The translations under genes and the position numbers were made by a program. Positions 5,811 through 57,281 of a DNA stretch of 64,000 bases are shown in pieces (positions within the stretch are counted from its first letter, which is position 1; each line of letters starts with the position of its first letter). The notes beneath the pieces are model-generated. The model did no database searches. It was not told where the DNA came from and saw only the letters and a program-made list of their open reading frames with translations. Source of the DNA: Escherichia phage EPIMRB01; the sequence record PQ657784, one strand, 5' to 3'.

Positions 5811-6080
5811 TTAATTAAACAGTGGAGCGATACGTTTCAGAAGAGTAGCAGCACCTTTGGCGAATTTTACATCATGAAAAACAGTTTCTTCTTCCGTTAC
5901 AACACGAGCTTTAATGTTTTCACAATCCCAATTTTTACGAACAATCTTCAAAAGCTGCAGTAAATCTTTACATTCAGCAATATCGATAACACATCCACGA
6001 GAATCTTCCATTATCGCACGATAACCGTAAGCCATACCATAATCGTTGAAAGATTGCTCGATGATAATTAAGTTTTCCAT
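5811..6080 (-). CDS. hypothetical protein
   Basis: ATG at 6080 preceded by GGAGAATAAA leader shared with other cassette genes; track start at 6092 is TTG. Confidence 0.5.
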   Translation of the reverse strand: MENLIIIEQSFNDYGMAYGYRAIMEDSRGCVIDIAECKDLLQLLKIVRKNWDCENIKARVVTEEETVFHDVKFAKGAATLLKRIAPLFN

Positions 6081-6177
6081 TTTATTCTCCAAGTTATTTT
6101 CTGTATCAGTAGTTGATATTGATATAGTACCATAATCAACTACTGATGTATATAGTTTTATGAAAAAATTTTAAACT

Positions 6178-17302: not shown

Positions 17303-17467
17303 TTACTCTTCTTTTTCTTTAGATTCCTCTTTTTTCTTTTTAGGAATCTGTTCAGGACCTTTATTTACTACAGCACCTGATGTTGTTCCAGTAGAGATAT
17401 TTTCAGGATTACCACCTGAATCTCCAGCAACCATATCTTCTTTAATAAATTCTTTATATGTTTTCAT
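17303..17467 (-). CDS. hypothetical small protein with internal-protein-like N-terminus
   Basis: 54-aa ORF read by hand, MKTYKEFIKEDMVAGDSGG...KKKKEESKEKEE; ATGA overlap with 61.1-like stop. Confidence 0.4.
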   Translation of the reverse strand: MKTYKEFIKEDMVAGDSGGNPENISTGTTSGAVVNKGPEQIPKKKKEESKEKEE

Positions 17468-17513
17468 ATTAACCTCTATTCATAAAAGCATTAAAAATTT
17501 GGTCATCAATAGA
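17465..17513. repeat. 49-bp direct repeat, copy 1 (3' end of 61.1-like gene)
   Basis: 48/49 identical to 17823-17871; covers last 14 codons, stop, SD and ATG of next gene. Confidence 0.8.
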
Positions 17514-17825
17514 TGGCACAGTAATATTTTCTGCATCATTTAGCAAATCATTAATTTCATCGGATAGCATAACACATGTACCTTTATTTCCTGTAATTGT
17601 TACTGCGCAATTACGAACGTTTTCTTTATTAAATTTTAGGTTAATATTTTCGTAATGAAAATCCTTTAATGCTGAATATATTTTTAAAATAAAATTGTCT
17701 TTTACTACAATAAACCCAACCTCACTATTAAAACGTGGTTCATGGAAACTGTAATAAACCTTTTCATCTATAAAATCGTATGAAATTTTTTCCATTTTTA
17801 AATATGAAAATTCAGAACTATACAT
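17469..17825 (-). CDS. hypothetical protein (61.1 position)
   Basis: 118-aa ORF; C-terminal 14 aa identical to next ORF. Confidence 0.5.
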   Translation of the reverse strand: MYSSEFSYLKMEKISYDFIDEKVYYSFHEPRFNSEVGFIVVKDNFILKIYSALKDFHYENINLKFNKENVRNCAVTITGNKGTCVMLSDEINDLLNDAENITVPSIDDQIFNAFMNRG

Positions 17826-17871
17826 ATTAACCTTTATTCATAAAAGCATTAAAAATTTGGTCATCAATAGA
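17823..17871. repeat. 49-bp direct repeat, copy 2 (3' end of 61.2-like gene)
   Basis: see copy 1. Confidence 0.8.
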
Positions 17872-18746: not shown

Positions 18747-18806
18747 GATAATCTCCTCAGTAGTTTATGTTTATATAGTATCTCAATTTCCAACAAAAGT
18801 AAACAG

Positions 18807-19248: not shown

Positions 19249-19277
19249 AACAATCTCCTCATTTAACCAACAAGACT

Positions 19278-19307
19278 ACTATACCATAGTCTCGTCAGCT
19301 TGTAAAC
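19278..19307 (-). promoter_or_regulatory. early promoter upstream of dmd
   Basis: GTTTAC-N18-TATAGT, -35 overlaps gene 41 stop. Confidence 0.55.
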
Positions 19308-23920: not shown

Positions 23921-24070
23921 TCAATTGATACATTCATATTTAACTTGTAACAGTAATAAACCCCAACCTAAAATAATAGTTGGAATCATAAGAGGAACCG
24001 TTACGCTATAGTATATACTTATTATAATCATCAAGATTAAAAGCAACACTGCTATAATTTTGCTTTTCAT
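23921..24070 (-). CDS. imm.1-like small membrane protein
   Basis: 49-aa hydrophobic ORF read by hand; ATGA overlap with imm stop. Confidence 0.45.
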   Translation of the reverse strand: MKSKIIAVLLLILMIIISIYYSVTVPLMIPTIILGWGLLLLQVKYECIN

Positions 24071-24318
24071 TCCTTCTCTCTGATGATAATTACTTGATTT
24101 GGCTGTGCAGACTTTTTGGTTTCACCCGCAATTGACCAAATAAATGTAATAAACCAACCAATAATTGACCAGTTAAACAGTAAAGACGTGAAAAAGATTC
24201 CTACTGTCGATTTTGACCCACGCATCAAGGCGATGAACCATGGAAGCATGTATATAATAATAGCCAACACGCCTGAAACTAAAACCATAAAAATTGAACC
24301 TGCTACTAAAGTTTCCAT
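24067..24318 (-). CDS. imm: superinfection immunity protein Imm
   Basis: 83 aa, two TM segments; size and position as T4 Imm. Confidence 0.85.
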   Translation of the reverse strand: METLVAGSIFMVLVSGVLAIIIYMLPWFIALMRGSKSTVGIFFTSLLFNWSIIGWFITFIWSIAGETKKSAQPNQVIIIREKE

Positions 24319-24325
24319 GTTTTCC

Positions 24326-24706
24326 TCACTTAGTCAAATTTTTTACACATGAATTATAAGAATTCACTACATACTCCATTGGAGCATTTTTACCAGTACG
24401 CCATTGGTAATTATTAGCCCAATTTGCCCAAAGTTCAGCGCAGTAGTTTTCAATTTTTTCTTCGCGTGTAATTACATCCGAATTACGATATGCTTGAGCA
24501 GATTCATCTGGACGAATAGCTTCGTCAAAATTCGCCTGCATTTGTTCTACTGTCTGTTTTGGAGCTTCTTTATAACACTTGACGTTAGGATTATAAAATT
24601 TGCTTGAACAGTTTACAATTTTTCCTACATCAGACTGATTTACTACCGGTCCTTGAGCTACACAACCAGTAAGACCTAATGCAATAACCAAAATAGCAAT
24701 TTTCAT
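24326..24706 (-). CDS. lipoprotein (LTGC lipobox)
   Basis: 126-aa ORF with signal peptide and lipobox, Cys-containing mature part; lies between imm and gene 43. Confidence 0.55.
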   Translation of the reverse strand: MKIAILVIALGLTGCVAQGPVVNQSDVGKIVNCSSKFYNPNVKCYKEAPKQTVEQMQANFDEAIRPDESAQAYRNSDVITREEKIENYCAELWANWANNYQWRTGKNAPMEYVVNSYNSCVKNLTK

Positions 24707-24716
24707 AATAATTTCC

Positions 24717-24953
24717 TCAAATACAAGTAGTAATTACTCCAGTAGTGCTTACACAGGTATTACCTAATTGAACACCCAGCGTTCCATTAGTATTCATATG
24801 AAGATTATCACCAATTTTTGTTGATACTTTACCATTCATGTGAATAACAGTATTAGATTCAATCACATTCTGAGTGTCATTTTCAATATCAATAAATGGA
24901 ACAGCTGCTAATGCAACTAAACACACTGCTAAGCAACCATAAACAATTTTCAT
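24717..24953 (-). CDS. small secreted/membrane protein
   Basis: 78 aa from ATG at 24953 behind the GGAGAATAAA leader; signal-peptide-like N-terminus; track ORF extension runs through the promoter. Confidence 0.5.
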   Translation of the reverse strand: MKIVYGCLAVCLVALAAVPFIDIENDTQNVIESNTVIHMNGKVSTKIGDNLHMNTNGTLGVQLGNTCVSTTGVITTCI

Positions 24954-24997
24954 TTTATTCTCCAAATCCGTATCAGTTGATAGTTGTATAGTACCAT
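24947..24997. repeat. 51-bp promoter-leader cassette repeat, copy 1
   Basis: identical to 51632-51682; includes -10, leader, SD, ATG and second codon. Confidence 0.8.
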
Positions 24998-25017
24998 GGA
25001 AGAACAGGGATGTAAAC
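24988..25017 (-). promoter_or_regulatory. early promoter of cassette type (GTTTAC-N18-TACTAT)
   Basis: followed by leader CAACTATCAACTGATACGGATTTGGAGAATAAA ATG. Confidence 0.55.
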
Positions 25018-25100
25018 AGTTTTGTGAAAAAATTTTTAATGAATTTACAGGATCTAGAATCATCTATTTTTCCTAAGTATAGATTTATATTACTTGTATG

Positions 25101-25122
25101 AAAAAGGGACCCGGAGGTCCCT
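25101..25122 (-). terminator. rho-independent terminator downstream of gene 43
   Basis: AGGGACC-UCCG-GGUCCCU then UUUUUC. Confidence 0.6.
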
Positions 25123-25134
25123 AGATTTATTCTA

Positions 25135-27831
25135 TCAGCCAAACAGGAAGTCTAACGAAGCTTTTTCTTCATAGTCCATACCAGCCGATTCACACATGCC
25201 TGCAAGCGGTTTAACAAACGATTTTTGGAACAAAGTTGAGTAGTCAATCCAAGACAGTACGTCAGAACGAATTTCTTTTGGAAGTTCTGTACCCGATGGC
25301 CAAGCAATGCATTTGTCACCAAATGGATTTCCTTCACGCAATGGAAGAACCATTACTTTATTTCCATCCAAAATTGGAGCTACACCCAGACCACTAACAG
25401 CTCGACGATAAGTTAGCACACCACGAATATGGAACGGACATTTAAATCCTGGCCAACCTTTATCATCATATTTCGCTATATCGTTCGCAGTTTTTACTTC
25501 AGCAATAACTTTATAGTCAAGTTGACGATATTCTTTCTCGAAGTTCTTGTAATATTCTTGGACAGACTCTTCACCTTCCTGAAGAATACGACGAATACTT
25601 TCTTCGAGAGCTTCTTGCACTGCTTTTGGTGTTGAACTCTGCTGAGTTTCCATACCCATGATTTTTAGATGCGGTTCAGCAAATCGTTTATCTTCCATAT
25701 CATAAACGTTCAGAGCATAACGCTTTTTCGCTTTCCAAAATCCACCAACGCCCTTTGAACCAAGTGGAGGGCAAGAAATAGCTTCACGGTCCATATGCAT
25801 CAGATGCTCGCGGTTATTCATATAATCACATAACTCACGATATGCAACATCAATCATAGGTTCCATCTTTTTCTTACCGAACTGATTCATGAATTCAACT
25901 AAATCGTTCTGCTCTTTGAATCGGTCAAGACCAACTTTTTCAATAACTTTATCTACACAAACATATACCGAATCAGTATCACCTGCTGCAATGAAATCTT
26001 CATCGTTAGTTCCGCATACTTTATTCAGATATTCATTAATTTTACGAGCAATCCACTGAATACCAACTTGGCCGAAAATTGTGATAGCAGTAGCATTTCG
26101 CAAATCATAGTAACGGAAATGAATATTACCAAGAGCACCATAAAGACTGTTAATAAGAATTTTACGGTTCAGTTGATTTGTGTTAGCAAGTGTAGCTGCT
26201 TTTTCACATTCTTCAATCAGACTATTGAGAACGGATTCGGTGTAATTCGATAGTTCATTTAAGAAATCATCACTGAACTTAACATATCGTTCAACTTCAG
26301 GTTTAGTTGAACAAGACCCTGCGCCTTTCATAATAATCTTTTTAATAGCTTCGGCATTCATTTCTTCAGCGAACATTTTCTTTTTCCAGTCTTTACGCTG
26401 GAAAAATACTTTAGCGATTTCCTTTGGAATGATACCTTCTTGATGCTTATCATACATCCATCCATTCGGAGAACAAGAATATTCATCACTCGGTTTAGGA
26501 GCTGTTCCTGCGATATATTCATGAATTGGATGAACTTTAAACTGACCACGAATAGTCTCAGGACTAATGTTAACCTGACGAATAATGCTCGGATACAGAG
26601 ACGTCAAGTCAAAACTCATAATATATCGACGAGCAATTGGTTTAGGTTCAAACACAAATGCACCCGGAAAACTCTGTTTAACGTGCGAACCTTGTTGAGG
26701 AATAACCTTATGTTCACCTTTCAATGAGTTAAAAATAATAGCATCCCAGGTTTTAATAGGACTCATTACACCAGAAAAAGGCATTTTAGCGTAATAAGAC
26801 ATACTTAAAACTAGATCGATAAACCCGCGAATTTTATCAATTGCTTGAACTGATTCTACGTCAATGATGTTATAACTAATGTATCGTTGATGATTAGTCT
26901 CACGAAGTTTATTAATAGGACCGTCGTATGGTAATTTACCTTTTTTGGTTTCATGTTGAGCAACTGATTCCAAAGAGAATGACGGCAAATTAGTAAAAGC
27001 AAATTTCTTGTACAAATCTAAATAATCAAGAATAGATACACCATCAATAGAATAAATTTCTTTGCTGCCGTACATGTTTTGAATTAGTTTAGATTTTACT
27101 CGACCAATTGGAGAGAAGCGTTTCATACTACGTTCACCGAGAACCATTTTAACGCGATTCATGATATACGGAACGTCAAATCCCTCAATATTCCAACCAG
27201 TAAAAATAGCAGGTCGTTTCTGTTCCCAGAGATTGATATATTCCATGAGCATATCACGCTCATTATCGAATGGCATATAAATTACTCGGTCAAGAATTTC
27301 TTGAGGAACTTCATCACCACCTTCACAGTCAAGCTTAGCAGCTAACTTTGCATCCCATTTTGATACTGAACCATACATTGAATTCAAAAGGTCGAAAACA
27401 TAAAAACGATCATCAATTGAATCGTAATGAGTGATAGCATCAATTTCATATTCAGCTTTCATTGGGTCAGGAAATTTATCACCAGTAACCTCAATGTCAC
27501 AGTTAGCTACACGAACAAATTTTCGGTCATAAACAATTTCTGAACCATATGTATCACTGATATAAGCGAGTTTAAAATCGTTCATACCGAGAGCTTCGAG
27601 ACCGATGTCTTCCATTCGTTTCATCCAATCTCGAGCATCTTTCATTGATGGAAATTTTTGAGGAGCGCAATTTTTACCATAAATGTCTTTGTACTTTGAC
27701 TCTTCCTTACAATGCCTAAACATAGTCGGAAGATATTCTACTTCACGAGTACGTTCCTTTCCGTTTTCATCAATATAACGTTCAACAATGTTATTTCCGA
27801 CTGTTTCAATAGAGATATAAAATTCTTTCAT
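25135..27831 (-). CDS. 43: DNA polymerase gp43 (family B)
   Basis: 898 aa as T4 gp43; exonuclease and polymerase motifs; operator hairpin upstream. Confidence 0.97.
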   Translation of the reverse strand: MKEFYISIETVGNNIVERYIDENGKERTREVEYLPTMFRHCKEESKYKDIYGKNCAPQKFPSMKDARDWMKRMEDIGLEALGMNDFKLAYISDTYGSEIVYDRKFVRVANCDIEVTGDKFPDPMKAEYEIDAITHYDSIDDRFYVFDLLNSMYGSVSKWDAKLAAKLDCEGGDEVPQEILDRVIYMPFDNERDMLMEYINLWEQKRPAIFTGWNIEGFDVPYIMNRVKMVLGERSMKRFSPIGRVKSKLIQNMYGSKEIYSIDGVSILDYLDLYKKFAFTNLPSFSLESVAQHETKKGKLPYDGPINKLRETNHQRYISYNIIDVESVQAIDKIRGFIDLVLSMSYYAKMPFSGVMSPIKTWDAIIFNSLKGEHKVIPQQGSHVKQSFPGAFVFEPKPIARRYIMSFDLTSLYPSIIRQVNISPETIRGQFKVHPIHEYIAGTAPKPSDEYSCSPNGWMYDKHQEGIIPKEIAKVFFQRKDWKKKMFAEEMNAEAIKKIIMKGAGSCSTKPEVERYVKFSDDFLNELSNYTESVLNSLIEECEKAATLANTNQLNRKILINSLYGALGNIHFRYYDLRNATAITIFGQVGIQWIARKINEYLNKVCGTNDEDFIAAGDTDSVYVCVDKVIEKVGLDRFKEQNDLVEFMNQFGKKKMEPMIDVAYRELCDYMNNREHLMHMDREAISCPPLGSKGVGGFWKAKKRYALNVYDMEDKRFAEPHLKIMGMETQQSSTPKAVQEALEESIRRILQEGEESVQEYYKNFEKEYRQLDYKVIAEVKTANDIAKYDDKGWPGFKCPFHIRGVLTYRRAVSGLGVAPILDGNKVMVLPLREGNPFGDKCIAWPSGTELPKEIRSDVLSWIDYSTLFQKSFVKPLAGMCESAGMDYEEKASLDFLFG

Positions 27832-47252: not shown

Positions 47253-47282
47253 ATTATACCACATCCTTGTGGTAAAGTAAAC
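47253..47282 (-). promoter_or_regulatory. early promoter upstream of paralog B
   Basis: GTTTAC TTTACCACAAGGATGTGG TATAAT, identical to the rIIA.1 promoter. Confidence 0.55.
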
Positions 47283-48310
47283 TAGTTCAGTGCATTTAGT
47301 GCATTGTTCAGTTTAGAACGTTGCTTCGTGAGATTTTTGACTTTTTCTTGAGCTTTTTCTAGCATCTTTTCAGCTTCTAGCACTTCATTAGTTGCTTTAA
47401 CGAGTTCATCATCTACTGCCTTGATAGACTTCTCAATCGCATCTGCATGCCATTTTTCAACAGGTTTAAGACTCGGATTTTCAATAGGAAGAAAATTCAC
47501 TTTATTGAATTTCCATGCATCCTTATTACCTGAACTATACATCCAAAATTTAGGATCGTTTGATGAATAATTGGATAAATTTAAATTTAAGTTATCTTGC
47601 ACTTCCTGCTTTTTCTCTTGTGTGACTTCGTCCTTTCTCAAAAAATCGTATTTAAATGAAACGATCATATCAAGTTCATATGTTGTTGTGTCTAATTTAA
47701 ATCGTTCAAAACGAGGTAAAATCTTAGACTGAACAGCGGCAACAACATCCATATACTTAAATGCTTCTGTCAACTGCGATTTAAGGCATTCGCAAATTGA
47801 AAGAGAATTTTTTGTATTAGGTTTAAAGCTAATTCGTGCAGTTCTATTATTTTCTTTTAATGGTCTTACTTCCATCTGAAGAGTATAACCATCAAATTTC
47901 AGATTCTTTAAGTTAATATCAGAACCTTTTAATCGACTCGCAGTTGATAAAATTTGCTTTAATTGTCTACGGAACAGAGCAATAAATCTCCATTCAATAC
48001 GATAATGATTTGGATTGAAGAATCCAGATGATAAATCGACCTTACTTTGACCAACGCCTTGAACAAATAGAGGATTTTTATAATCAATAGTTTTACAGAA
48101 ATCGGTGAGCTGCTCACGGGCCGTCATTTGTGTAATATACCCTGCTTTACTAAAATTACGCACCCATTCACTGCTATTCGTATACTTAAAGTGATGAATA
48201 ACACGATTAACTTTATCAGGGTCTAAATTATTTTCACACAAAAATGTCATAACATCACGAGTATAGCTGGCATTACGAACCATATCTTCAATTTGAGAAC
48301 GAGTTTTCAT
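47282..48310 (-). CDS. hypothetical protein with C-terminal coiled coil (paralog C)
   Basis: 342-aa ORF; motif RQLKQILSTASRL. Confidence 0.55.
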   Translation of the reverse strand: MKTRSQIEDMVRNASYTRDVMTFLCENNLDPDKVNRVIHHFKYTNSSEWVRNFSKAGYITQMTAREQLTDFCKTIDYKNPLFVQGVGQSKVDLSSGFFNPNHYRIEWRFIALFRRQLKQILSTASRLKGSDINLKNLKFDGYTLQMEVRPLKENNRTARISFKPNTKNSLSICECLKSQLTEAFKYMDVVAAVQSKILPRFERFKLDTTTYELDMIVSFKYDFLRKDEVTQEKKQEVQDNLNLNLSNYSSNDPKFWMYSSGNKDAWKFNKVNFLPIENPSLKPVEKWHADAIEKSIKAVDDELVKATNEVLEAEKMLEKAQEKVKNLTKQRSKLNNALNALN

Positions 48311-48318
48311 GGTATTCC

Positions 48319-49206
48319 TTAAGATTTAAGTAAATCAACGATTTTAATTAACTTTTCACGCTCAGATTTAGCTTTACTACTCAATCCAGATAGTCTGAAA
48401 ATTTCATCGTCATATTGTTGAATAGAAATATTCAGCTCTTCAATTTGCTTATTAAAATAATCAATTTGTTCAGAATGTTTTTCGTTACTACGACCTGGTG
48501 CAGGTTTTGTAGGCAATTTAGTTGAACTGGATTCATCCGGGCGATAAATTAAAATACAACTTGAACCAATCGGACATTTAGCACCAGATGAATATTCTAA
48601 TGTTCCGGCTTCTTTTAAAACTTCAAAAGCTAAACAGAGATGATGCCCCATATTAACATAATCTGTAGAGCGAGCTCTGACGTAATAATCATCGCCGCGA
48701 ATACTAAATTTAAAGCATTTAAGGTCTTCTGTATTATTGGTCTTAAAAATCATTTGTTTATCTAGACCTTTAGCTAATCGAGCGCCTAATGCTAATAATC
48801 GTCGTTGATTTTCCCACAAATCTGCGATCATTTGATCGAATGATAATTTTGGCATTAGTCGACCATAAAGGTCATATCCTTTATTATAATTACGAAGGAT
48901 TTCACTCGCGTTAATACGAGACAATGCTCCAATTTTATTAAGGGCTTTCATAATGCGATTAGATAAACCCATTCCAGACCAGTTTGTTCGCTGCAAATGT
49001 TTTTCTAATCCAAATCCAATATCAACTTTAAACTTATCTAAAATTTCTGCATGAACATCTCTGTCAATAACATTCAAATCCAAAGTTGGGTTAAATCTAT
49101 GAAAAAATTTATCTGGCTCTCCACGACGAAGTACAGTCCATTCATTCAATTTTTTATTAACTAAAGATTTAATTACTGCATTGACATTATTAATTGCTAC
49201 TGACAT
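48319..49206 (-). CDS. hypothetical protein with C-terminal coiled coil (paralog D)
   Basis: 295 aa from ATG at 49206 with GAGGA SD. Confidence 0.5.
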   Translation of the reverse strand: MSVAINNVNAVIKSLVNKKLNEWTVLRRGEPDKFFHRFNPTLDLNVIDRDVHAEILDKFKVDIGFGLEKHLQRTNWSGMGLSNRIMKALNKIGALSRINASEILRNYNKGYDLYGRLMPKLSFDQMIADLWENQRRLLALGARLAKGLDKQMIFKTNNTEDLKCFKFSIRGDDYYVRARSTDYVNMGHHLCLAFEVLKEAGTLEYSSGAKCPIGSSCILIYRPDESSSTKLPTKPAPGRSNEKHSEQIDYFNKQIEELNISIQQYDDEIFRLSGLSSKAKSEREKLIKIVDLLKS

Positions 49207-49217
49207 ATTTTCCTCAC

Positions 49218-49622
49218 TCAATTTTCAATTTTACTAAATACGCAGAATATGATGGAAAAGACTATATAAGCACCGCACACAGATTGAACTAATACCATTC
49301 CAAAGAACCAGACAATATTATCAAACAGTGTCTGTTTTACGTCGAAAGGACGTAAACTTACAGTAATATTATCACCTTTTTCTATTGAAGAATACATCTC
49401 TGGAGAAATATATTCACTAAATCTATAACCGTCTTTGAGTTCATATACGGCAATAAACGATAAACTAGACCCCTTTCCTTGAGTTCCTGTAAGGGTATTA
49501 ACTATAGTAACATCATAATCTTTATAATGCATATAATCATTAATAGCATAATAACCATATGCAATTACTATACATAAACAACATATCAATAAATTCAATC
49601 TTTTAATTATCAACTGTTTCAT
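49218..49622 (-). CDS. hypothetical membrane protein
   Basis: 134-aa ORF with N- and C-terminal TM segments. Confidence 0.5.
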   Translation of the reverse strand: MKQLIIKRLNLLICCLCIVIAYGYYAINDYMHYKDYDVTIVNTLTGTQGKGSSLSFIAVYELKDGYRFSEYISPEMYSSIEKGDNITVSLRPFDVKQTLFDNIVWFFGMVLVQSVCGAYIVFSIIFCVFSKIEN

Positions 49623-49677
49623 AATAATCTCAATTAAAAGGGCTTAGAACCATTATACCATCCTTGGTATAAAGCGG

Positions 49678-50205
49678 TTATGCGAGTACCGTCTTTAACC
49701 GTTCTTCAAATTTCCGAAGAGTGTTCTGGCGTTCAGCTCTTTGCTTTTTGTAAGTTTCAATACGCTCTGAAATGAGAGTGTATCGTTCATTTACTGATTC
49801 TTTCATAAAATCAGGAATTTCACGAGAAGCTTTAATTTCATCAAATTTATCAATAACAGCTTGCTCTTCAGCAATTAAGTTATCATACATCAAAATATCT
49901 TTCTTGATGAACTCAATATCTTCTTGAGTTACACGAGATAATTTAGATGCTTTATCCTTTTTGTACTGTTCGTTAGTATCACGAGACCAGTGTAATGTAC
50001 GATTTTTATTCGTATTCTTATAAATTTCTACAATACCAATCTCATCAATAATAACGATCCAATTCCAACGGGATTTGTAAATTTGTCCTCCATCAACCGC
50101 GATTTCACCACCGATTGAGACATCATTAAAGAACTTGCTTTGAGCTTCAGATTTAAATTTACCATCATTGTAGTTTACTAAGTTGAAAATATCTTTAGCA
50201 TTCAT
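49678..50205 (-). CDS. hypothetical protein
   Basis: 175 aa from ATG at 50205 with GGAGG SD behind cassette promoter. Confidence 0.5.
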   Translation of the reverse strand: MNAKDIFNLVNYNDGKFKSEAQSKFFNDVSIGGEIAVDGGQIYKSRWNWIVIIDEIGIVEIYKNTNKNRTLHWSRDTNEQYKKDKASKLSRVTQEDIEFIKKDILMYDNLIAEEQAVIDKFDEIKASREIPDFMKESVNERYTLISERIETYKKQRAERQNTLRKFEERLKTVLA

Positions 50206-50233
50206 TTTCTGTTCCTCCGTAGTTGATAGTTGT

Positions 50234-50263
50234 ATAGTATCACAGAGGAACAGTCTTGTAAAC
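50234..50263 (-). promoter_or_regulatory. early promoter of cassette type
   Basis: GTTTAC-N18-TACTAT then ACAACTATCAACT leader and GGAGG SD. Confidence 0.55.
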
Positions 50264-50265
50264 AA

Positions 50266-50580
50266 CTAAAAGAAACTTCTTTCACAATTTTTTCCACTGA
50301 ACCACGCGCTCACTGCTTTCTTAGTCTCAGGAGCAGTGTTATCCATAAACCATTCAAAGGCAGCCTTTTTATGATTCTGGAGGGCTTCTCGGGCTTTAAT
50401 CTGCTCACGGTCTATTAACACTAACATATGAGCCTTTCTTGTCACCAAGGGCTTCTTATGATTTTTTGAATACTCCCAATCATTTGTCCATCGCATCGTT
50501 GTTGCGAACTGAAATACTGCTTCTTTAATTTTAGTTTCGTAAATTTCACGAGCCTTTGAGTATAACATCATTACCTCCAT
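50266..50580 (-). CDS. hypothetical protein
   Basis: 104-aa ORF. Confidence 0.45.
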   Translation of the reverse strand: MEVMMLYSKAREIYETKIKEAVFQFATTMRWTNDWEYSKNHKKPLVTRKAHMLVLIDREQIKAREALQNHKKAAFEWFMDNTAPETKKAVSAWFSGKNCERSFF

Positions 50581-50669
50581 TTACCAGTTTAATTCTAGTC
50601 ATCTTTTTGATGGCAGTCCATATAATCTATTTCTGAACTGCCTTTTTATCTTAGAAGGCCTCTTATGAA

Positions 50670-51638
50670 TTATTTCAGAAGAGTAACCTCAGCGATTTCT
50701 TCCCAACCGTTTTTGTCGGTCATAATAAAGTCAGCAAGATAAAGAGCAGTACGCAGTGAAACATTGCGTAAACGATTAACATTGACTTTCATCCATGATA
50801 ATGCTTTATAAGTTTCTTCATCAGAAAGACCGCGCTTTTGCATCATGTCAGTTGAAAGAATAACATCTTCAACCCTGACCATAATTTCTTCATTAGTGTG
50901 AACACCTAAATCTAAATAAACTGAGCGGGACACTAATGCTTGTAAATGTGGAGCAAGTTTAGTACCACGGTCTAATTCGCGGTCAATGTCAACGTTTGTG
51001 ATAAAAACAATCGTTCCTTTAAATTCAAACTCACGCTCAATGCCTTTTTCTTCTAAGTAAGAAGATGCAGTGCTCCAGCAGACTTTACGGGTCTCTCCAG
51101 TGTCCAGAGCAGCTTTCAGAAGATTAAGAATGTCCATATCAGAGAAAACATCCACATCATCAATCAAAAGGACAGAATTCTCTTCACGATTATTCCAAAG
51201 CTGCTCATAAAGACCAATACCAGAGATTTTACCGTTAATGCTTTTATACTCAATGTATCCAATATCATTTGCTTTATTTAAAGCTTTATCTAAAGAATAC
51301 GTTTTACCAATACCTGCTGCACCAGAGATAATTAATGAACGAATGTTTCCGTTAATAATACCATTCGTCATCATTCCCATAACATTAAATCTTTTATTAA
51401 TGCGGGTTTTCATATCTTCATATGATTCTTTAACTTCTTCAACTTTTACACCGTCATATGAAATGTCTGATTTGTAAACCCAAACACCGCGACGTTTACC
51501 GTCAATTTCAACAAAAACTTTACCATCTCCTTGTGCATCTACCGGAGCATTATCAGGGAACCACTCACCTAAGAGTTCAAAAGTTCCAGAGATTTCTTTG
51601 CCAAAGTAGATACCCTTATTGATAGTTACAGTTTTCAT
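50670..51638 (-). CDS. predicted AAA+ / P-loop ATPase
   Basis: 322 aa from ATG at 51638; Walker A SGAAGIGKT and Walker B VLLIDDVD; own early promoter and cassette leader. Confidence 0.6.
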   Translation of the reverse strand: MKTVTINKGIYFGKEISGTFELLGEWFPDNAPVDAQGDGKVFVEIDGKRRGVWVYKSDISYDGVKVEEVKESYEDMKTRINKRFNVMGMMTNGIINGNIRSLIISGAAGIGKTYSLDKALNKANDIGYIEYKSINGKISGIGLYEQLWNNREENSVLLIDDVDVFSDMDILNLLKAALDTGETRKVCWSTASSYLEEKGIEREFEFKGTIVFITNVDIDRELDRGTKLAPHLQALVSRSVYLDLGVHTNEEIMVRVEDVILSTDMMQKRGLSDEETYKALSWMKVNVNRLRNVSLRTALYLADFIMTDKNGWEEIAEVTLLK

Positions 51639-51682
51639 TTTATTCTCCAAATCCGTATCAGTTGATAGTTGTATAGTACCAT
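51632..51682. repeat. 51-bp promoter-leader cassette repeat, copy 2
   Basis: identical to 24947-24997. Confidence 0.8.
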
Positions 51683-51702
51683 AAAGCTTTATGCTTGTAA
51701 AC
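51673..51702 (-). promoter_or_regulatory. early promoter of cassette type upstream of ATPase gene
   Basis: GTTTAC-N18-TACTAT; leader identical over 51 nt to copy at 24947-24997. Confidence 0.55.
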
Positions 51703-51732
51703 CGTTCTGTGAAAAATTTTTGAAATAAAAAA

Positions 51733-51752
51733 AGGGAGCCCGAAGGCTCCCT
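51733..51752 (-). terminator. rho-independent terminator downstream of NTase gene
   Basis: AGGGAGCC-UUCG-GGCUCCCU then UUUUUUUAUUUC. Confidence 0.6.
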
Positions 51753-51753
51753 A

Positions 51754-52767
51754 TCATTTATAATAACTTCGGTGGTTTTCAAGATAGACCTTCTCAAGGA
51801 AGTCATCCCAGAAACTCATATCTACTTTTTGCTGCATACCGTTCTTAGAAGCTTCAGTAGATGCTGCTTCTACTTGATCTACCACATCTTCCAAAAACTC
51901 TTGAACTATTTTAAATGGATGTTTACCCAACTTCACGTCGAGAATAAATGGAGCATCTTGGAGTGGATAAACCAAGTCGCCAGTTTTGTAAATTTCCAAT
52001 AGTTGGAGTCCACCACGACAAGCATGACTTAGTGCTTTCCAATCAATACCTTCATTAGCTTCGGCTTTACGAGCACGTTCACCATATTCAGCATCTAATT
52101 TGTTCAGTGACTGCTTAAGCTCAATAAGAGAAAGCGTTGTCTGATATTTACGACCCAGCACTGTATAGAACGTTTGTGGACCTGTTTTCTCATGATTATG
52201 GAACACCCATTCACAGAATTCGTTTTCTGGAAGACGATGCTTAATATCTTCAATTTTAGTGCGACGTTGTCCTTGTGTTCCATCTTCTCGGTAGACATTC
52301 CGTTGATCAGGAATTTGATTAATTACTTTCAACACATCACGTAATGCAGCTAGACGAGAACCTTTAACACCATATTTAGAGGCTTGCTTGCGGACATATC
52401 CTAAATAGGATTTCATGTTAGTCGTATAAAAACGAGAACGGTTGTCTTGAATAAACTTCCACACATCAGGCAAATCAGATTTAACCACTAGTTCAGGTGG
52501 AGTGTGAAGCATATCCAATGCTACAGTTTCACCATCTGCTGCTAATTTAAAGAAATACTTAAGACTATACAATTCGTGGTCAATATCATCTTTAGTGTTT
52601 TTAGATGATGTGTTGTTGGTATTTTTACTCATGTGCTCTTTGACATTTCCGATAAGAATATCGCGAGCAGGAGGAACAAAGATTTCTTTAAAATCTACAT
52701 CAGATTCTGGGGTAGAAGTTCCATAAAGATGACTACCGAAATAGCTTTTCATTACTGTTTTCATCAT
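51754..52767 (-). CDS. predicted Pol-beta-superfamily nucleotidyltransferase-fold protein
   Basis: 337-aa ORF; N-terminal GS-x9-DVD motif (GSHLYGTSTPESDVD) plus downstream acidic residue (ALDMLH); terminator hairpin right after stop. Confidence 0.55.
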   Translation of the reverse strand: MMKTVMKSYFGSHLYGTSTPESDVDFKEIFVPPARDILIGNVKEHMSKNTNNTSSKNTKDDIDHELYSLKYFFKLAADGETVALDMLHTPPELVVKSDLPDVWKFIQDNRSRFYTTNMKSYLGYVRKQASKYGVKGSRLAALRDVLKVINQIPDQRNVYREDGTQGQRRTKIEDIKHRLPENEFCEWVFHNHEKTGPQTFYTVLGRKYQTTLSLIELKQSLNKLDAEYGERARKAEANEGIDWKALSHACRGGLQLLEIYKTGDLVYPLQDAPFILDVKLGKHPFKIVQEFLEDVVDQVEAASTEASKNGMQQKVDMSFWDDFLEKVYLENHRSYYK

Positions 52768-53225
52768 TCAGCCTTATATTCAATAACAGGACATACTTTA
52801 GCTTTACGAGCTTTTAAAAATTCAACGATAATCGATTTCTTGGGTTGAATAGGAGGTAAACCTTTATTTTTCCTATCAATGTTTTCTACGTGTAAAGCAT
52901 AATCCTTTTTCCATTTATAATCTTTATATTTTTCACGCAAATGTACAGGAATAACAAATGAACCAATAATAAGTAAAACAACCAAAAGCGCAAGTATAAA
53001 TGCTGATGGAAGCAAAGTCCATAAACTACCGAAAATAAGCCATCGTTGTAGGCTTTCTGCACAAATAATTGTTAGCCCTACAAGTATAGCACATCCAAAA
53101 ATAGAAACGAAAAATGTAGGAATGACAATAGACCAAAAATATGCGCATAATGTCTTAGGTCGTTGCCATTCATCGTTAAACAATTTGAATAATTTATAGT
53201 GCCAAGAGTTTTCATTAATAATCAT
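52764..53225 (-). CDS. hypothetical membrane protein
   Basis: 153-aa ORF with several TM segments. Confidence 0.5.
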   Translation of the reverse strand: MIINENSWHYKLFKLFNDEWQRPKTLCAYFWSIVIPTFFVSIFGCAILVGLTIICAESLQRWLIFGSLWTLLPSAFILALLVVLLIIGSFVIPVHLREKYKDYKWKKDYALHVENIDRKNKGLPPIQPKKSIIVEFLKARKAKVCPVIEYKAE

Positions 53226-53227
53226 AA

Positions 53228-53749
53228 TTATCCTTTCATTGAAGGCGTAACGGTTGTTAAATACTTAATCATAGCTTCAGCTTCTGATTTTGATAATGAA
53301 ATTTCTTCACCGTTTTGACGAATAGAAATAAAATCCGGATGACGGTCACCACCAGCTTTTAAAACACACATATAAGTATCAGTTTCGCCTTCAATATTTG
53401 AAATGATTGAAGCAGTTCCGCATGAATGTGGTTTTTGATAAATCAATACAGCTTTTCTTCCACCGTTTGACTGTTCATAGGCTTTTAATACATCAAGCAA
53501 ATCAGTTCTTTTATCAATAGCTAAAATGTTATTTTCATCTTCAATGTTAAATCCTTCGGATACTTCATAAAGCGTTACCCATAAATCACCGATGTCAATA
53601 ACAGCATTTACTTTTCCACGGCTTTCAAGAGTATGACAAATTTTCTTGATTTCGTCATAACTCATTTTAATAATATCATCTCCTTGACTAAGAAAGATGT
53701 CATTTTTAAATTCAACACGAATTAAACCACTTCCACTTGAAATAAACAT
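53228..53749 (-). CDS. hypothetical protein (paralog pair member)
   Basis: 173-aa ORF; C-terminus EAEAMIKYLTTVTPSM resembles next ORF. Confidence 0.5.
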   Translation of the reverse strand: MFISSGSGLIRVEFKNDIFLSQGDDIIKMSYDEIKKICHTLESRGKVNAVIDIGDLWVTLYEVSEGFNIEDENNILAIDKRTDLLDVLKAYEQSNGGRKAVLIYQKPHSCGTASIISNIEGETDTYMCVLKAGGDRHPDFISIRQNGEEISLSKSEAEAMIKYLTTVTPSMKG

Positions 53750-53755
53750 ATTTCC

Positions 53756-54310
53756 TCACTTTGAAATCATAGTTGGAATGACAGAATCAAGATAAGTCTT
53801 TAGCGCAATAGCTTCGTCTTTGGTAAATGTAATGATATGTGATCGAAAATCATCAATTTGACGAATAGATACTACATCTCCCTCTTCATAGCATTTTGAC
53901 ACATTTAAAATAGTTTCATCATTCTGATCGCAAGCGTTAGTAATAATAGCATTGCAATTTTTGAGCCATTTTAAACTATGTTTTCTTTCATTAGAATAAT
54001 AAAAATATTTAATCTTAGCTATAAAACTATCCCAATGGATAACTGATAAACACATTGACTCGCTTTTAATATTAAATCCTGGGCATGAAGAATAAAAATG
54101 AATTTTATGCTCATCATTAATGCTTACAATTTTATCAGTGTAAGCATATTCAATTTGAGTTAAACGAACAATTTCACTAGGTGTAAAATACAGCATATCG
54201 TCTTCTTGCGTCAAACGATACATATTATTTACTTTTTCTATAGCCAATTCACCAAAAAGTGGACTAACTTCTAATACTAATCGTTTCATATTAATCCTTT
54301 TTATTGGCAC
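53756..54310 (-). CDS. hypothetical protein (paralog pair member)
   Basis: 184-aa ORF; C-terminus DEAIALKTYLDSVIPTM. Confidence 0.5.
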   Translation of the reverse strand: MPIKRINMKRLVLEVSPLFGELAIEKVNNMYRLTQEDDMLYFTPSEIVRLTQIEYAYTDKIVSINDEHKIHFYSSCPGFNIKSESMCLSVIHWDSFIAKIKYFYYSNERKHSLKWLKNCNAIITNACDQNDETILNVSKCYEEGDVVSIRQIDDFRSHIITFTKDEAIALKTYLDSVIPTMISK

Positions 54311-54569
54311 GAATTTGTTCTAAAATTTTAGAGTATTCCTTTGTATCAGATTTACGTACAATCGATACACTATACGGCATACTATCGGTGTCTTTTATAA
54401 AGCGTTCCAAATGACATTCTAATAAAATTTCTGGATTATAAATCGTGTACATCAAATTACCTGTTGCTCCACGATATTGACAGATTTCTACTGATTGAAC
54501 ACCATTCCATAATTTTGTTAAGACCAAATCACCTACTTCTAATTTAGGAAAGCCCATGTTATTCACCAA
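54291..54569 (-). CDS. hypothetical protein
   Basis: 92-aa ORF. Confidence 0.45.
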   Translation of the reverse strand: MVNNMGFPKLEVGDLVLTKLWNGVQSVEICQYRGATGNLMYTIYNPEILLECHLERFIKDTDSMPYSVSIVRKSDTKEYSKILEQIRANKKD

Positions 54570-54744
54570 TTAAAGTTTCAATATAAGAATCAAGATTTAC
54601 TTTAGCTTCTTCCATAAGAGTTTTGTATTTAATCTTGTTGGCATGTCCGGAGAAAGCTGATTCATCAATAATTGTTGATGTATGAACAGCTTTACTATAC
54701 GTCTCAATTAATTCTCTTAATTTAAAAGCCTGCTCACTTGTCAT
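54559..54744 (-). CDS. hypothetical protein
   Basis: 61-aa ORF. Confidence 0.4.
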   Translation of the reverse strand: MTSEQAFKLRELIETYSKAVHTSTIIDESAFSGHANKIKYKTLMEEAKVNLDSYIETLIGE

Positions 54745-54876
54745 TACATACTCCTCTGAATCATATCAATAATGTTGTTCACCAAATTATAAGTAAACAT
54801 TGGGTAATTATATTGAATCATCACATACACAACAAACAAAACTTTCATTCTCTTCTCCTTGGCAGTTGACAAGATT

Positions 54877-54906
54877 ACTATACCATAACCTTGCCAACTT
54901 GTAAAC
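54877..54906 (-). promoter_or_regulatory. early promoter
   Basis: GTTTAC-N18-TATAGT. Confidence 0.5.
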
Positions 54907-54908
54907 CA

Positions 54909-55082
54909 TTAAATGACGTTTTCGATAAAATTCTGAAGCTTTGTATGAGCATCAACCATGATTTTCATTTCTTCCTTTGCGAAAGCTGTGCCTCTTTCAC
55001 GAGAAGAACATTCATAGTCAGAAACTGCATTAGCATATTCTTCAATTAGCTTCATTAAAAACATCTGCTTTTCAGTTTTCAT
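54909..55082 (-). CDS. hypothetical small protein
   Basis: 57-aa ORF read by hand with AGGTGG SD. Confidence 0.3.
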   Translation of the reverse strand: MKTEKQMFLMKLIEEYANAVSDYECSSRERGTAFAKEEMKIMVDAHTKLQNFIENVI

Positions 55083-55266
55083 TATTCCACCTAATCATTT
55101 CAAGATATTGAACTAACTTAGCTTTGGATTTATCCAAATCCTTTTTAGCTGTTTCTATACCGTCGTATGAATATCCTTCACAATGCTCAACTGCTAATTG
55201 ATATGAATCTATTTCAACATCACGTGCTAATTTAATGATTTTTTCAAACTGTTCGTGTGTTAGCAT
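55072..55266 (-). CDS. hypothetical protein
   Basis: 64-aa ORF. Confidence 0.4.
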   Translation of the reverse strand: MLTHEQFEKIIKLARDVEIDSYQLAVEHCEGYSYDGIETAKKDLDKSKAKLVQYLEMIRWNNEN

Positions 55267-55268
55267 AC

Positions 55269-55472
55269 TTAAACTCTCGTATTATGATCGATAATTTCAT
55301 CAAGAAACATATCTAACGCTTCTAAAGCATTATCAACTTTAGTTTCAAAGTCTTTAATGCCTTTATTCGAAATACCCGATGAATACCAAGCAAAGTCAAT
55401 CAGCTCTTCATCTGCTTTACGAATTGAAGCCACTAATTCCTTGATTTTATCTGCTTGCTCTATACTAATCAT
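55269..55472 (-). CDS. hypothetical protein
   Basis: 67 aa from ATG at 55472. Confidence 0.4.
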   Translation of the reverse strand: MISIEQADKIKELVASIRKADEELIDFAWYSSGISNKGIKDFETKVDNALEALDMFLDEIIDHNTRV

Positions 55473-55660
55473 TATTCTACCACATATGACAGAGAGAATA
55501 TTGCACACGCCATGTGAGTTGCAACTTCATCACACATATTATAACGTTTCTTAAGAAGTTCTACAAGTTCTTCACTAGTAACTTCATCCATGTCGACGAA
55601 AAAATCACCATTAATGATGACGTAGATATTTCCTTCTTGATTGAGTGCTTCAATTTTCAT
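55472..55660 (-). CDS. hypothetical protein
   Basis: 62 aa from ATG at 55660 behind cassette promoter and GAGGAG SD. Confidence 0.45.
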
Positions 55661-55688
55661 GATGTTCTCCTCTTTATCCGATAGTTGT

Positions 55689-55718
55689 ATAGTATCACAG
55701 CTCAAACGGAAAGTAAAC
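55689..55718 (-). promoter_or_regulatory. early promoter of cassette type
   Basis: GTTTAC-N18-TACTAT then ACAACTATC leader. Confidence 0.55.
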
Positions 55719-55733
55719 CGGTAAAATGAAAAA

Positions 55734-55751
55734 AGTCTCCCGAAGGAGACT
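55734..55751 (-). terminator. rho-independent terminator downstream of rI.-1
   Basis: AGUCUCC-UUCG-GGAGACU then UUUUUUCAUUUU. Confidence 0.6.
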
Positions 55752-55755
55752 AATG

Positions 55756-56142
55756 TTATTCGAGGGAAAGAAGATATTTACTCTGGTAAAACATTCCAGT
55801 AATATCATCTATCGTGCTTTGAATGGCTGGAGGCATTTCTTTATAAATGCTGTTAGATTGGTCTAGTATGCGATCAATCATTTTAATTGTGTCGGTAGGA
55901 AGTTTACTGGCATCTGGAATTGAAGGCGTGTATTTTCTACCAGAATACCCCAAATATTGTTCACCAAATTTATCAATCAAATCTGGCAATTCGGAGAAAA
56001 TAAAATCGTATGCTTTGTGTCTAGCATAACTTTTAGTTTCAAAATGTGCAGAATGAAAATAAGCTTGTGCAGCCATTAATAAACCTAAGTATTCATCTGC
56101 CTTTGAAGGTTTTCCACTTTGTGAAAAGTCGCTGAATTTCAT
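55756..56142 (-). CDS. rI.-1-like protein
   Basis: 128-aa ORF immediately upstream of rI; synteny. Confidence 0.5.
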
Positions 56143-56432
56143 TCAGTCTCCAATTTAATGTTCATAATTCTAGCGTATGATTGTGCCATCTCCGCGCCTC
56201 GTTCTATACATTCAAAATCAGAAGAGCACGGGTCATTTTTATAGGTCGTTCTCATAAAACTATAGAACTGTTCAGATGATTCTACGCTTTTATTTTCAAA
56301 AAGCATATAAACATGTCTAATACCAGATTCCATAAATTTATCAAAATGAGGATCGACATTCGCTTCAATCGATGGTGATAAAGCAAATGACAATCCTAGC
56401 ATGGCAAATAGTGCCGTTGCTTTTAAGGCCAT
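56139..56432 (-). CDS. rI: lysis inhibition regulator RI
   Basis: 97 aa, MALKATALFAMLGLSFALSPSIEA signal-anchor as T4 RI. Confidence 0.9.
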   Translation of the reverse strand: MALKATALFAMLGLSFALSPSIEANVDPHFDKFMESGIRHVYMLFENKSVESSEQFYSFMRTTYKNDPCSSDFECIERGAEMAQSYARIMNIKLETE

Positions 56433-56444
56433 AAAGGCCTCCTA

Positions 56445-56657
56445 TCATTTTTGTCCTGTATTTACTTTATGCCGATGCACGGCCTTAACTTTATCAAGGT
56501 ATTTTTCAAAATTTCGCAATCTAGTATAGTCTGCCGGAGATTGGTTGAGTGATACTTCTCGACGCAAAGCTGAAATGATATTTCCAACTTCCCTACGAAT
56601 TTCATCTAATTGAAGCACAGTAAGATTGCGAAGTTGCTTTTCAGTTAATTGTAGCAT
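56445..56657 (-). CDS. hypothetical protein (rI.1 position)
   Basis: 70-aa ORF. Confidence 0.45.
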
Positions 56658-56699
56658 ATATACCCCTTTAGTTAGATAAACCTATTTATAACTTTTGCA

Positions 56700-57281
56700 C
56701 TAACCGAGCTTTTTAGTTAATTCGTTCCAGTGTTTTCTACACAAAGAAACATAAATTTCATCACCAATACAGATTTGATTACCTTCTTTAACTGGTGTTC
56801 CATCTTCCATTAATCGAGCTGTCATAATCGCTTTTTTGCCGCAATGACAAACTGCCTTTAGTTCAATAAGTTTATCTGCAATCGCTAAAAGTTCTTTAGA
56901 ACCTTCAAACAATTTTCCAGCGAAATCAGTCCTTAATCCATAAGCCATAACAGGAACATTATATGTATCAACAATTCGACTTAATTGATGCACCTGTTCA
57001 GTTTTTAAAAACTGAGCTTCATCTACAAATACGCAATGAATATCTTTTTGTGCTTCAGCCCATTTATAGAACTCGAAAATATCCATATCATCTGTAATAA
57101 TATTCGCTTCCTGCTTAATTCCAATGCGAGAAACAACTTCACAGACAGAATCGCGAGTATCAATAGCAGGCTTAAGAACTAATACACCCATTCCACGTTC
57201 TTTATAATTATGTGCAGCAGTCAAAAGAGAAGCAGATTTTCCAGCATTCATTGCTGCATAAGTAAAAATTAAACTCGCCAT
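56700..57281 (-). CDS. tk: thymidine kinase
   Basis: 193 aa as T4 Tk; P-loop AMNAGKS. Confidence 0.95.
   Translation of the reverse strand: MASLIFTYAAMNAGKSASLLTAAHNYKERGMGVLVLKPAIDTRDSVCEVVSRIGIKQEANIITDDMDIFEFYKWAEAQKDIHCVFVDEAQFLKTEQVHQLSRIVDTYNVPVMAYGLRTDFAGKLFEGSKELLAIADKLIELKAVCHCGKKAIMTARLMEDGTPVKEGNQICIGDEIYVSLCRKHWNELTKKLG

Follow-up and report, generated by a model that had tools for sequence, protein, structure and literature searches.

The repeated units that head five genes in the 64-kb stretch of phage DNA analyzed here (the window) are best explained, with a probability of about 0.8, as early promoters of a single sub-family related by descent, whose copies exchange sequence with one another and are occasionally used as joints. 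This explanation rests on the anatomy of the sequence, its conservation in T4 and ~540 relatives, the mosaicism of the copies, and the early expression reported in the literature for the T4 orthologues. Three parts of it are inferred: where exactly transcription begins, that RegB cuts these sites, and by which route the copies recombine.

In the proposed mechanism, the unmodified host sigma-70 RNA polymerase would read each unit as an immediate-early promoter, composed of an A/T-rich upstream region, the -35 hexamer GTTTAC, a 17-nt spacer between TTTACx and TAnnnT, an extended -10 element TGn, and the -10 hexamer TACTAT. A short, presumably unstructured 5' leader would follow, and the Shine–Dalgarno sequence (SD) includes GGAG, a motif at which the phage RegB/S1 endoribonuclease cuts. 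The message would accordingly be translated without delay and subsequently shut off. In three of the five copies, an intrinsic terminator with a UUCG loop would insulate the unit from upstream, which is the 'PeSL' layout (Arbiol et al. 2010; Comeau et al. 2014). Recombination or gene conversion among the copies would both keep them alike and make them mosaic, and the same homology would occasionally provide the joint for the insertion, loss, or replacement of a small early gene.

The Window and Its Relatives

Judged from its sequence, the window comes from a Tequatrovirus. Over positions 24000–27000 and 49000–57000, the sequence is the same as that of Escherichia phage AUBRB02 (100% identity), and matches to these segments at ~95–98% identity occur in several hundred Tequatrovirus (T4-like) genomes. 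The first ~68 kb of T4 is colinear with the window, the genes of which lie on the minus strand; the cassettes are therefore to be read on that strand.

Breakpoints between the window and T4 fall near 2795, 15452, 16041, 22244, 36007, 40817, 42113, and 52768. Several mobile elements of T4 are missing from the window: mobA (with the gene 60 split), segF, segA, mobB, mobC, the nrdD intron with I-TevII, and mobD. The gene dam is apparently missing as well, and a different glucosyltransferase segment replaces segA and beta-gt of T4. In the gene 61.1/61.2 region, a 49-nt direct repeat (17465–17513 and 17823–17871, 98% identical) encloses 358 nt with no counterpart in T4, apparently a small gene that was inserted or duplicated between repeats other than promoters.

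Extent of the Repeat

The pattern GTTTAC-N18-TACTAT has five exact matches in the 64-kb window, with the G of GTTTAC at 18804, 25017, 50263, 51702, and 55718. When one mismatch is allowed, there are eight matches against 0.40 expected, all of them on the minus strand, a number reached in 0 of 100 shuffles. The exact match at 18804, which is absent from the list in the earlier note, heads the spackle gene (an assignment made from the coordinate offset against T4) and is followed by an unrelated leader.

Copies are referred to below by the position at which their genes start. As the earlier note had it, a cassette lies at 24947–25017; it is oriented along the minus strand, where 25017–24951 reads GTTTAC-ATCCCTGTTCTTCCATGG-TACTAT-ACAACTATCAACTGATACGGATTT-GGAGAATAAA-ATG, with the GGAG of the SD at 24963–24960. 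The reported identity of 24947–24997 with 51632–51682 over 51 nt was likewise reproduced, and the full repeat spans 55 nt with one mismatch. That four genes are preceded by the complete unit, including the leader ACAACTATCAACTGATACGGATTT and the SD GGAGAATAAA, holds at 24953 and 51638 but not at 50205 and 55660. At 50205, the common part consists of the promoter and 13 nt past the -10 element (ACAACTATCAACT), followed by a separate SD, ACGGAGGAACAGAAAATG; at 55660, it consists of the promoter and 9 nt past the -10 element (ACAACTATC alone), followed by GGATAAAGAGGAGAACATCATG. The copy at 6080 is indeed degenerate: ATATAC takes the place of the -35 hexamer, and the leader is a longer variant, followed by the same SD. 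Across the 64-kb window, the 22-nt core TGGTACTATACAACTATCAACT, which takes in the -10 element, the discriminator, and the start region, has four matches with at most three mismatches, compared to 0.00 expected. The cassettes and their neighbors are listed in Table 1.

Table 1. Early-promoter cassettes, adjacent terminators, and downstream genes in the window.
Feature	Coordinates	Strand	Remarks
Early promoter–leader cassette 1	24947..25017	-	ahead of 78-aa ORF; T4 counterpart ahead of imm.1
Cassette 1 promoter	-35 GTTTAC 25017-25012; spacer ending TGG 25011-24994; -10 TACTAT 24993-24988	-	
Cassette 1 downstream part	ACAACT 24987-24982; SD/RegB site GGAGAATAAAA 24963-24953; ATG 24953-24951	-	
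Intrinsic terminator hairpin 3' of gene 43	25105..25122	-	AGGGACCTCCGGGTCCCT then T-run; 88 nt upstream of cassette 1 -35
78-aa ORF MKIVYGCLAV..., phrog_4189	24717..24953	-	between cassette 1 and imm.1; not in T4
Early promoter–leader cassette 2	51632..51702	-	ahead of nrdC.10
Cassette 2 parts	-35 51702-51697; -10 51678-51673; SD/RegB site 51648-51638; ATG 51638-51636	-	
Intrinsic terminator hairpin 3' of nrdC.11	51733..51752	-	AGGGAGCCTTCGGGCTCCCT then T7; directly upstream of cassette 2
nrdC.10 homologue, 322 aa	50670..51638	-	P-loop motif GAAGIGKT; phrog_1250
Early promoter cassette 3	50205..50263	-	ahead of nrdC.8; same -10 and ACAACTATCAACT; own SD ACGGAGGAACAGAAAATG
nrdC.8 homologue, 175 aa	49678..50205	-	phrog_2274
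Early promoter cassette 4	55660..55718	-	ahead of mobD.5; only TACTATACAACTATC in common; own SD GAGGAGAACATCATG
Intrinsic terminator hairpin 3' of rI.-1	55734..55751	-	AGTCTCCTTCGGGAGACT then T6; 16 nt upstream of cassette 4
mobD.5 homologue, 62 aa	55472..55660	-	phrog_3024
Degenerate cassette 5	6080..6153	-	-35 position ATATAC 6153-6148; -10 TACTAT 6129-6124
Cassette 5 leader and SD	variant leader ATCAATATCAACTACTGATACAGAAAATAACTT; SD/RegB site GGAGAATAAAA 6090-6080	-	no terminator
89-aa ORF, phrog_3720	5811..6080	-	between motB and cef; T4 keeps just its two ends

The Units as T4-Type Early Promoters

A motif scan of the window found ~20 T4-type early-promoter-like sites on the coding strand. 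They share G-TTTAC(A/T), a 17-nt spacer, usually TGn, and TAnnnT, with a GGAG-type SD and an ATG within 20–45 nt. A generic sigma-70 scan was uninformative in this A/T-rich genome (88–97 sites versus 86–92 expected); only the T4-specific motif was enriched.

The cassettes have the UP/-35/TGn/-10 architecture of T4 early promoters (PMC2988021). The -35 GTTTAC(A/T) and the -10 TAnnnT, 17 nt apart, are exact at 24953, 50205, 51638, and 55660, with ATATAC at 6080, and TGG or TGA stands just before the -10 element in all five copies. A/T-rich upstream sequence of the AAAAATTTTTTCACAAAAC type, which corresponds to the -40 to -60 region of T4 early promoters, is found at 24953, 51638, and 6080; at 50205, this region is nrdC.9 coding sequence, the -35 element beginning 2 nt past the nrdC.9 stop codon. 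For cassette 1, transcription would start near 24981, a position placed by rule, and give a leader predicted to be unstructured.

All five cassettes occur at homologous loci in T4, at ~97% identity: imm.1, nrdC.10, nrdC.8, mobD.5, and the motB–cef spacer (97% for the region upstream of nrdC.10). The feature is therefore already known, both in kind and at these loci. T4 contains a further copy ahead of e.8, in which the leader from ATCAACTACTGATACAG to ATGG matches that at 6080. The T4 genes imm.1, nrdC.8, nrdC.10, and e.8 belong to the early class in RNA and protein, and mobD.5 does so in RNA (PMC9697503 supplements). In addition, the element of phage Lutter (NC_054924) homologous to cassette 1 is annotated as 'promoter', and its hairpin as 'terminator'. 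By these sequence criteria, the units are strong early promoters of the T4 type, which would be active right after infection. There is no essential difference from the T4 promoters, with which they share the elements described above, the early-gene strand, the cassettes and loci themselves, and downstream genes that are early in T4 by RNA-seq and proteomics; even the -35 element of the 6080 copy is degenerate in both phages.

Other promoter-like elements were seen in passing. The sequence TATAAATC at 25082–25089 is one base away from the T4 late-promoter consensus, TATAAATA. It lies on the minus strand between the gene 43 terminator and the early promoter, and phage Lutter (NC_054924) has a 'promoter' annotation at the homologous spot. 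A second promoter sub-family consists of two early promoters (2418–2449 and 47253–47284, minus strand) that lie 45 kb apart and are identical over 32 nt, TAGTTTACTTTACCACAAGGATGTGGTATAAT; here the spacer that separates the -35 and -10 elements forms a hairpin, TACCACAAGGATGTGGTA. A third sub-family, 84% alike, comprises 19270–19307 and 54869–54906 (minus strand) and 2328–2384 of the relative L087. It has an inverted repeat across the -10 element, of the GACTATGGTATAGTAGTC type, and in L087 heads nrdC.10 in place of the usual cassette.

Leaders, Predicted RegB/S1 Sites, and Terminators

The strong RegB/S1 cleavage consensus is the 11-nt GG*AGRAYARAA (Uzan and Miller 2010, PMC3014915), which GGAGAATAAAA fits at 11 of 11 positions. 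GGAGRAYARAA has only three matches in the 64 kb, at 24953–24963, 51638–51648, and 6080–6090, compared to 0.49 expected; the 50205 and 55660 copies have GGAG, with the full 11-nt consensus absent. Both minimum-free-energy and centroid folds predict the GGA of the site to be unpaired, and the leaders as a whole lack structure (minimum free energies between -0.6 and -3.8 kcal/mol; z from 0 to +1 relative to shuffles). GGAGAATAAAA thus resembles the RegB/S1 targets in T4 early translation-initiation regions (PMC3014915) in that it lies in an early-gene SD and is predicted to be unpaired; the differences are the incomplete consensus in two copies and that the sites here are known by sequence. The cassette messages would be translated at once and then inactivated by RegB, with cleavage at these sites being a prediction.

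The occurrence of an identical leader on two unlinked genes could suggest a cis-acting element, such that the common leader would be a structured regulatory RNA (a riboswitch, an attenuator, or a small-RNA target). The leader is just ~28 nt long, no Rfam family reaches threshold anywhere in the window, and the folds are no better than those of shuffled sequences. This reading was rejected and deserves almost no credence.

The terminator hairpins lie upstream of the 24953, 51638, and 55660 copies. Each has a UUCG loop followed by a T-run, with predicted stabilities of -13.9 kcal/mol (z = -3.4) for 25105–25122, -16.2 kcal/mol (z = -4.1) for 51733–51752, and -10.8 kcal/mol (z = -4.3) for 55734–55751. 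A terminator scan found none at the 50205 copy (cassette 3) or the 6080 copy. Since these two copies have no terminator and the latter also has a poor -35 element, they are not full PeSLs; judged from its sequence, the 6080 copy may be weak or dead.

The likeness to PeSLs suggested in the earlier note thus applies to three of the copies, at 24953, 51638, and 55660, which show the published order of terminator, promoter, SD, and ATG, and falls short at 50205 and 6080, where there is no stem-loop. In each of the five copies, the element ends, on its 3' side, with the SD and ATG of the gene that follows. The T4/PST consensus for PeSLs is TTTACW-N17-TAYWAT (Comeau et al. 2014, PMC4122927). The cassettes with terminators and SDs are what Arbiol et al. 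2010 and Comeau et al. 2014 described as PeSL cassettes, and as such already known.

A Promoter Sub-Family Probably Related by Descent

Sequence conservation in the cassettes extends beyond what is common to early promoters in general. In the ~14 other early promoters of the window, the sequence past the -10 element and the leaders are unrelated, and only four of the ~20 sites have ACAACTATC there. Early promoters in general therefore do not need ACAACTATC(AACT) or the common leader. Based on these comparisons, the cassettes are taken to be one early-promoter sub-family related by descent, with the -10/discriminator/start region TGGTACTATACAACTATC(AACT) in common.

Alternatively, the resemblance could be purely functional, with selection for promoter strength and for a RegB/S1 site producing similar units independently of descent or exchange. 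Selection is known to act on the -35, TGn, -10, and UP regions (PMC2988021), and GGAGAATAAAA is exactly the RegB consensus, which would be expected from such convergence. However, it would not account for the unrelated sequences of the ~14 other early promoters past the -10 element and in the leader, for the 15 nt between core and SD (CTGATACGGATTT and its neighbors) that are identical in two copies at positions of no known constraint or structure, or for discrete spacer alleles common to different loci. Convergence is consequently regarded as very improbable.

Descent within one sub-family is also consistent with the distribution of the element. A 77-nt cassette query matched 541 phage records at 2502 places, the records being essentially all T4-type phages of Escherichia, Shigella, Yersinia, Salmonella, and Citrobacter. 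Nine exact 15-nt cores are present in one complete relative (IMG/VR 2974742932, 169,650 bp). A scan of IMG/VR with the 15-mer core returned 115 stretches, about two-thirds of them chance matches in unrelated coding sequence that were removed by requiring TTTAC at the right distance.

Mosaicism and Probable Exchange among Copies

The mosaicism of the cassettes was assessed in an alignment of the T4-like IMG/VR matches, T4, RB18, and the window. Around a single invariant core, the aligned sequences show six discrete types of spacer, seven or more types of leader, and 12 or more different first genes. At four loci, the leader AACTGATACGGATTTGGAGAATAAA is combined with four different spacers, and the spacer ATCCCTGTTCTTCCATGG precedes three different leaders. 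Among the relatives, the core also heads motA, the conserved middle-transcription activator (phrog_1345). The motA arrangement, which in this phage lies outside the window, is seen in L048 and L097, where the -10 element and start-region core are combined with the first 17 nt of the e.8/6080-type leader. The GGAG SD of motA is itself a well-known RegB target.

Comparisons at the gene 43/imm.1 locus indicate how such combinations would arise. Between the window and RB18, the spacer differs at 7 of 18 positions, compared to 15 of 305 in the flanks (Fisher p = 5e-5), and the RB18 allele is the spacer of the T4 nrdC.8 locus. Between L062 and T4, 4 of 18 spacer positions differ, compared to 2 of 305 in the flanks (p = 1e-4), and the L062 allele is that of another locus in L067. 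The swapping of spacer alleles between loci indicates that dispersed copies would undergo recombination or gene conversion. Faster drift of an unconstrained spacer could add to its divergence but would not yield identity with paralogous loci.

Partial cassettes were also observed. Salmonella phage STML-198 (L041, 158,099 bp; also L017) shares just 47 nt of the cassette with 49000–57000 by megablast (95.7%); the match covers the -10 element, leader, and SD, lacks the -35 element, and precedes an unrelated 59-aa ORF. In L119 and L066 (both IMG/VR 2974787500), the terminator stem is fused to the promoter spacer in two cassettes, with deletion of the T-run, the upstream A/T region, and the -35 element. 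These match the 'half PeSLs' of Comeau et al. 2014.

Genes behind the Cassettes

Recombination between PeSL cassettes has been proposed as a source of genome plasticity (Arbiol et al. 2010, PMC2839356; Comeau et al. 2014, PMC4122927), and the earlier note had concluded that the repeats mark the genes behind them as recently mobilized cargo. According to such a model of mobile, promoter-capped cassettes, each copy would mark a gene recently brought in by PeSL-to-PeSL recombination or by integration of a mini-circle, perhaps through a site-specific factor dedicated to the conserved core. PeSL mini-circles have been shown experimentally in RB49/phi1 (PMC2839356), although the authors of the PeSL papers identified no recombinase.

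For nrdC.10, nrdC.8, and mobD.5, the claim does not stand; the same cassette precedes them at the same place in T4, and these three of the five genes are fixed in position in T4 and more than 500 relatives. The nrdC.8–nrdC.10 block is matched at 80% coverage or more in 537 phage records. Moreover, nrdC.10 is family-wide, with relatives at 60–80% identity in ~650 other T4-like phages (of Klebsiella, Acinetobacter, Vibrio, and Aeromonas), and no cassette is detectable in those phages. The core ahead of motA also argues against cargo status; the earlier note had named the presence of the cassette before conserved genes in relatives as evidence to the contrary, and such an arrangement is found in part.

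The description as cargo applies loosely to the two small ORFs that many relatives lack and whose polymorphism favors the mobile-cassette model. ORF 24717–24953 is present in 325 records, in two allele classes, and ORF 5811–6080, traced by the part that is deleted in T4, in 260 records, compared to 541 with the cassette. The corresponding T4 joints are microhomology deletions, however. At the first ORF, the joint is a repeat, ATGAAAAT(T/C)G, found at the start codons of the ORF and of imm.1, so that in T4 the same cassette drives imm.1 directly; at the second, it is a 208-nt internal deletion at GGAAAA inside the ORF. Both joints use microhomologies of 6–10 nt just 3' of the cassette, rather than running from cassette to cassette.

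ORF 24717–24953 begins MKIVYGCLAVCLVALAAV and imm.1 (24326–24706), downstream of it, begins MKIAILVIALGLTGC, a lipoprotein-type signal. From their sequences, the two look like small envelope proteins adjoining the superinfection-immunity gene imm.

The Cassette as a Possible Recombination Joint

Two relatives show joints within the cassette itself. In L087 (IMG/VR 3300045988_128797, 1580–2390), a 740-nt insert lies between the nrdC.10 promoter core and the SD of nrdC.10 (GGAGAATAAAATG). It encodes three small ORFs (49, 87, and 66 aa) and carries two early-type promoters of its own. The left joint falls directly past CTATCAA, and both internal promoters end in CTATCAAA at the same position after the -10 element; the insert is flanked by promoter cores ending CTATCAA. 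In L114, a promoter and leader of the nrdC.8 type stand ahead of an unrelated 37-aa ORF, and the flanks, including the upstream sequence, differ. Because one core is joined to varied spacers, leaders, and genes, and given the L087 insert, the cassette is considered able to act as a shuffling joint.

These two joints are also what the mobile-cassette model would predict; association with indels was seen for 24953 and 6080 relative to T4, and for nrdC.10 in L087 and L119. Yet early-promoter cassettes show no excess of indel ends between the window and T4 (2 of 21, compared to 1.99 expected; P = 0.62), in a crude test that used one comparator and random placement and in which 7 of the 21 indels are homing-endonuclease genes. 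Furthermore, the nrdC.9–nrdC.10 deletion hybrid expected from recombination of the 50262 and 51701 copies, 1,439 bp apart, was found in 0 of 50,697 phage records at 80% query coverage or more. Taken with the fixed genes, the core ahead of motA, and the microhomology joints in T4, these results make it unlikely that the cassettes generally mark recently mobilized genes. That the 22-nt core TGGTACTATACAACTATCAACT is a preferred, perhaps factor-assisted crossover site for promoter-capped small genes is considered more doubtful still. The evidence instead favors early promoters of common descent that exchange sequence and occasionally provide a joint.

Relation to Known Systems

The cassettes resemble PeSLs (PMC2839356, PMC4122927) in combining a stem-loop terminator, an early promoter, an SD, and a start codon, repeated through hyperplastic regions, and in that some insertion or replacement joints, as in L087 and L114, fall inside the cassette. 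In contrast to that description, two of the five copies have no stem-loop and three of the five head genus-stable genes; in the comparison of the window with T4 alone, indel ends are unenriched, and the nearest pair shows no PeSL-to-PeSL deletion. The conserved early-promoter elements at the internal-protein (IP) loci of T-even phages (Repoila et al. 1994), compared here through their description in PMC2839356, are also associated with interchangeable small early genes, but at other loci. Arbiol et al. drew an analogy to integron cassettes and lambdoid 'morons', in which small genes travel with, or land behind, a promoter. Unlike these, the present cassettes have neither an integrase nor an attC-like site; what they have in common is the promoter, and most of the genes are not mobile.

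Implications

What the analysis adds to the known PeSL cassettes is the sub-family with its 22-nt core, the perfect RegB consensus in three leaders, sequence evidence for an exchange of alleles between loci, and the finding that 'recent cargo' does not describe most of the genes, which are long-resident. For five early genes of an unannotated T4-like genome, the cassettes fix the transcription units, the start codons, and the likely points of RegB shut-off. A repeated promoter cassette does not by itself indicate recent cargo behind it, since three of the five are constant throughout the genus and motA is driven by the same core. The reassortment of spacers, leaders, and genes, with allele swaps between loci, is a modest new point that gives population-level support to the idea of the PeSL as a linker. 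Were the core, as seems improbable, also a preferred crossover site, its ~nine dispersed copies per genome would serve as linkers for the exchange of promoter-capped small genes between co-infecting T-even phages, with the copies interconverting. It would then amount to an integron-like shuffling system that operates without an integrase.
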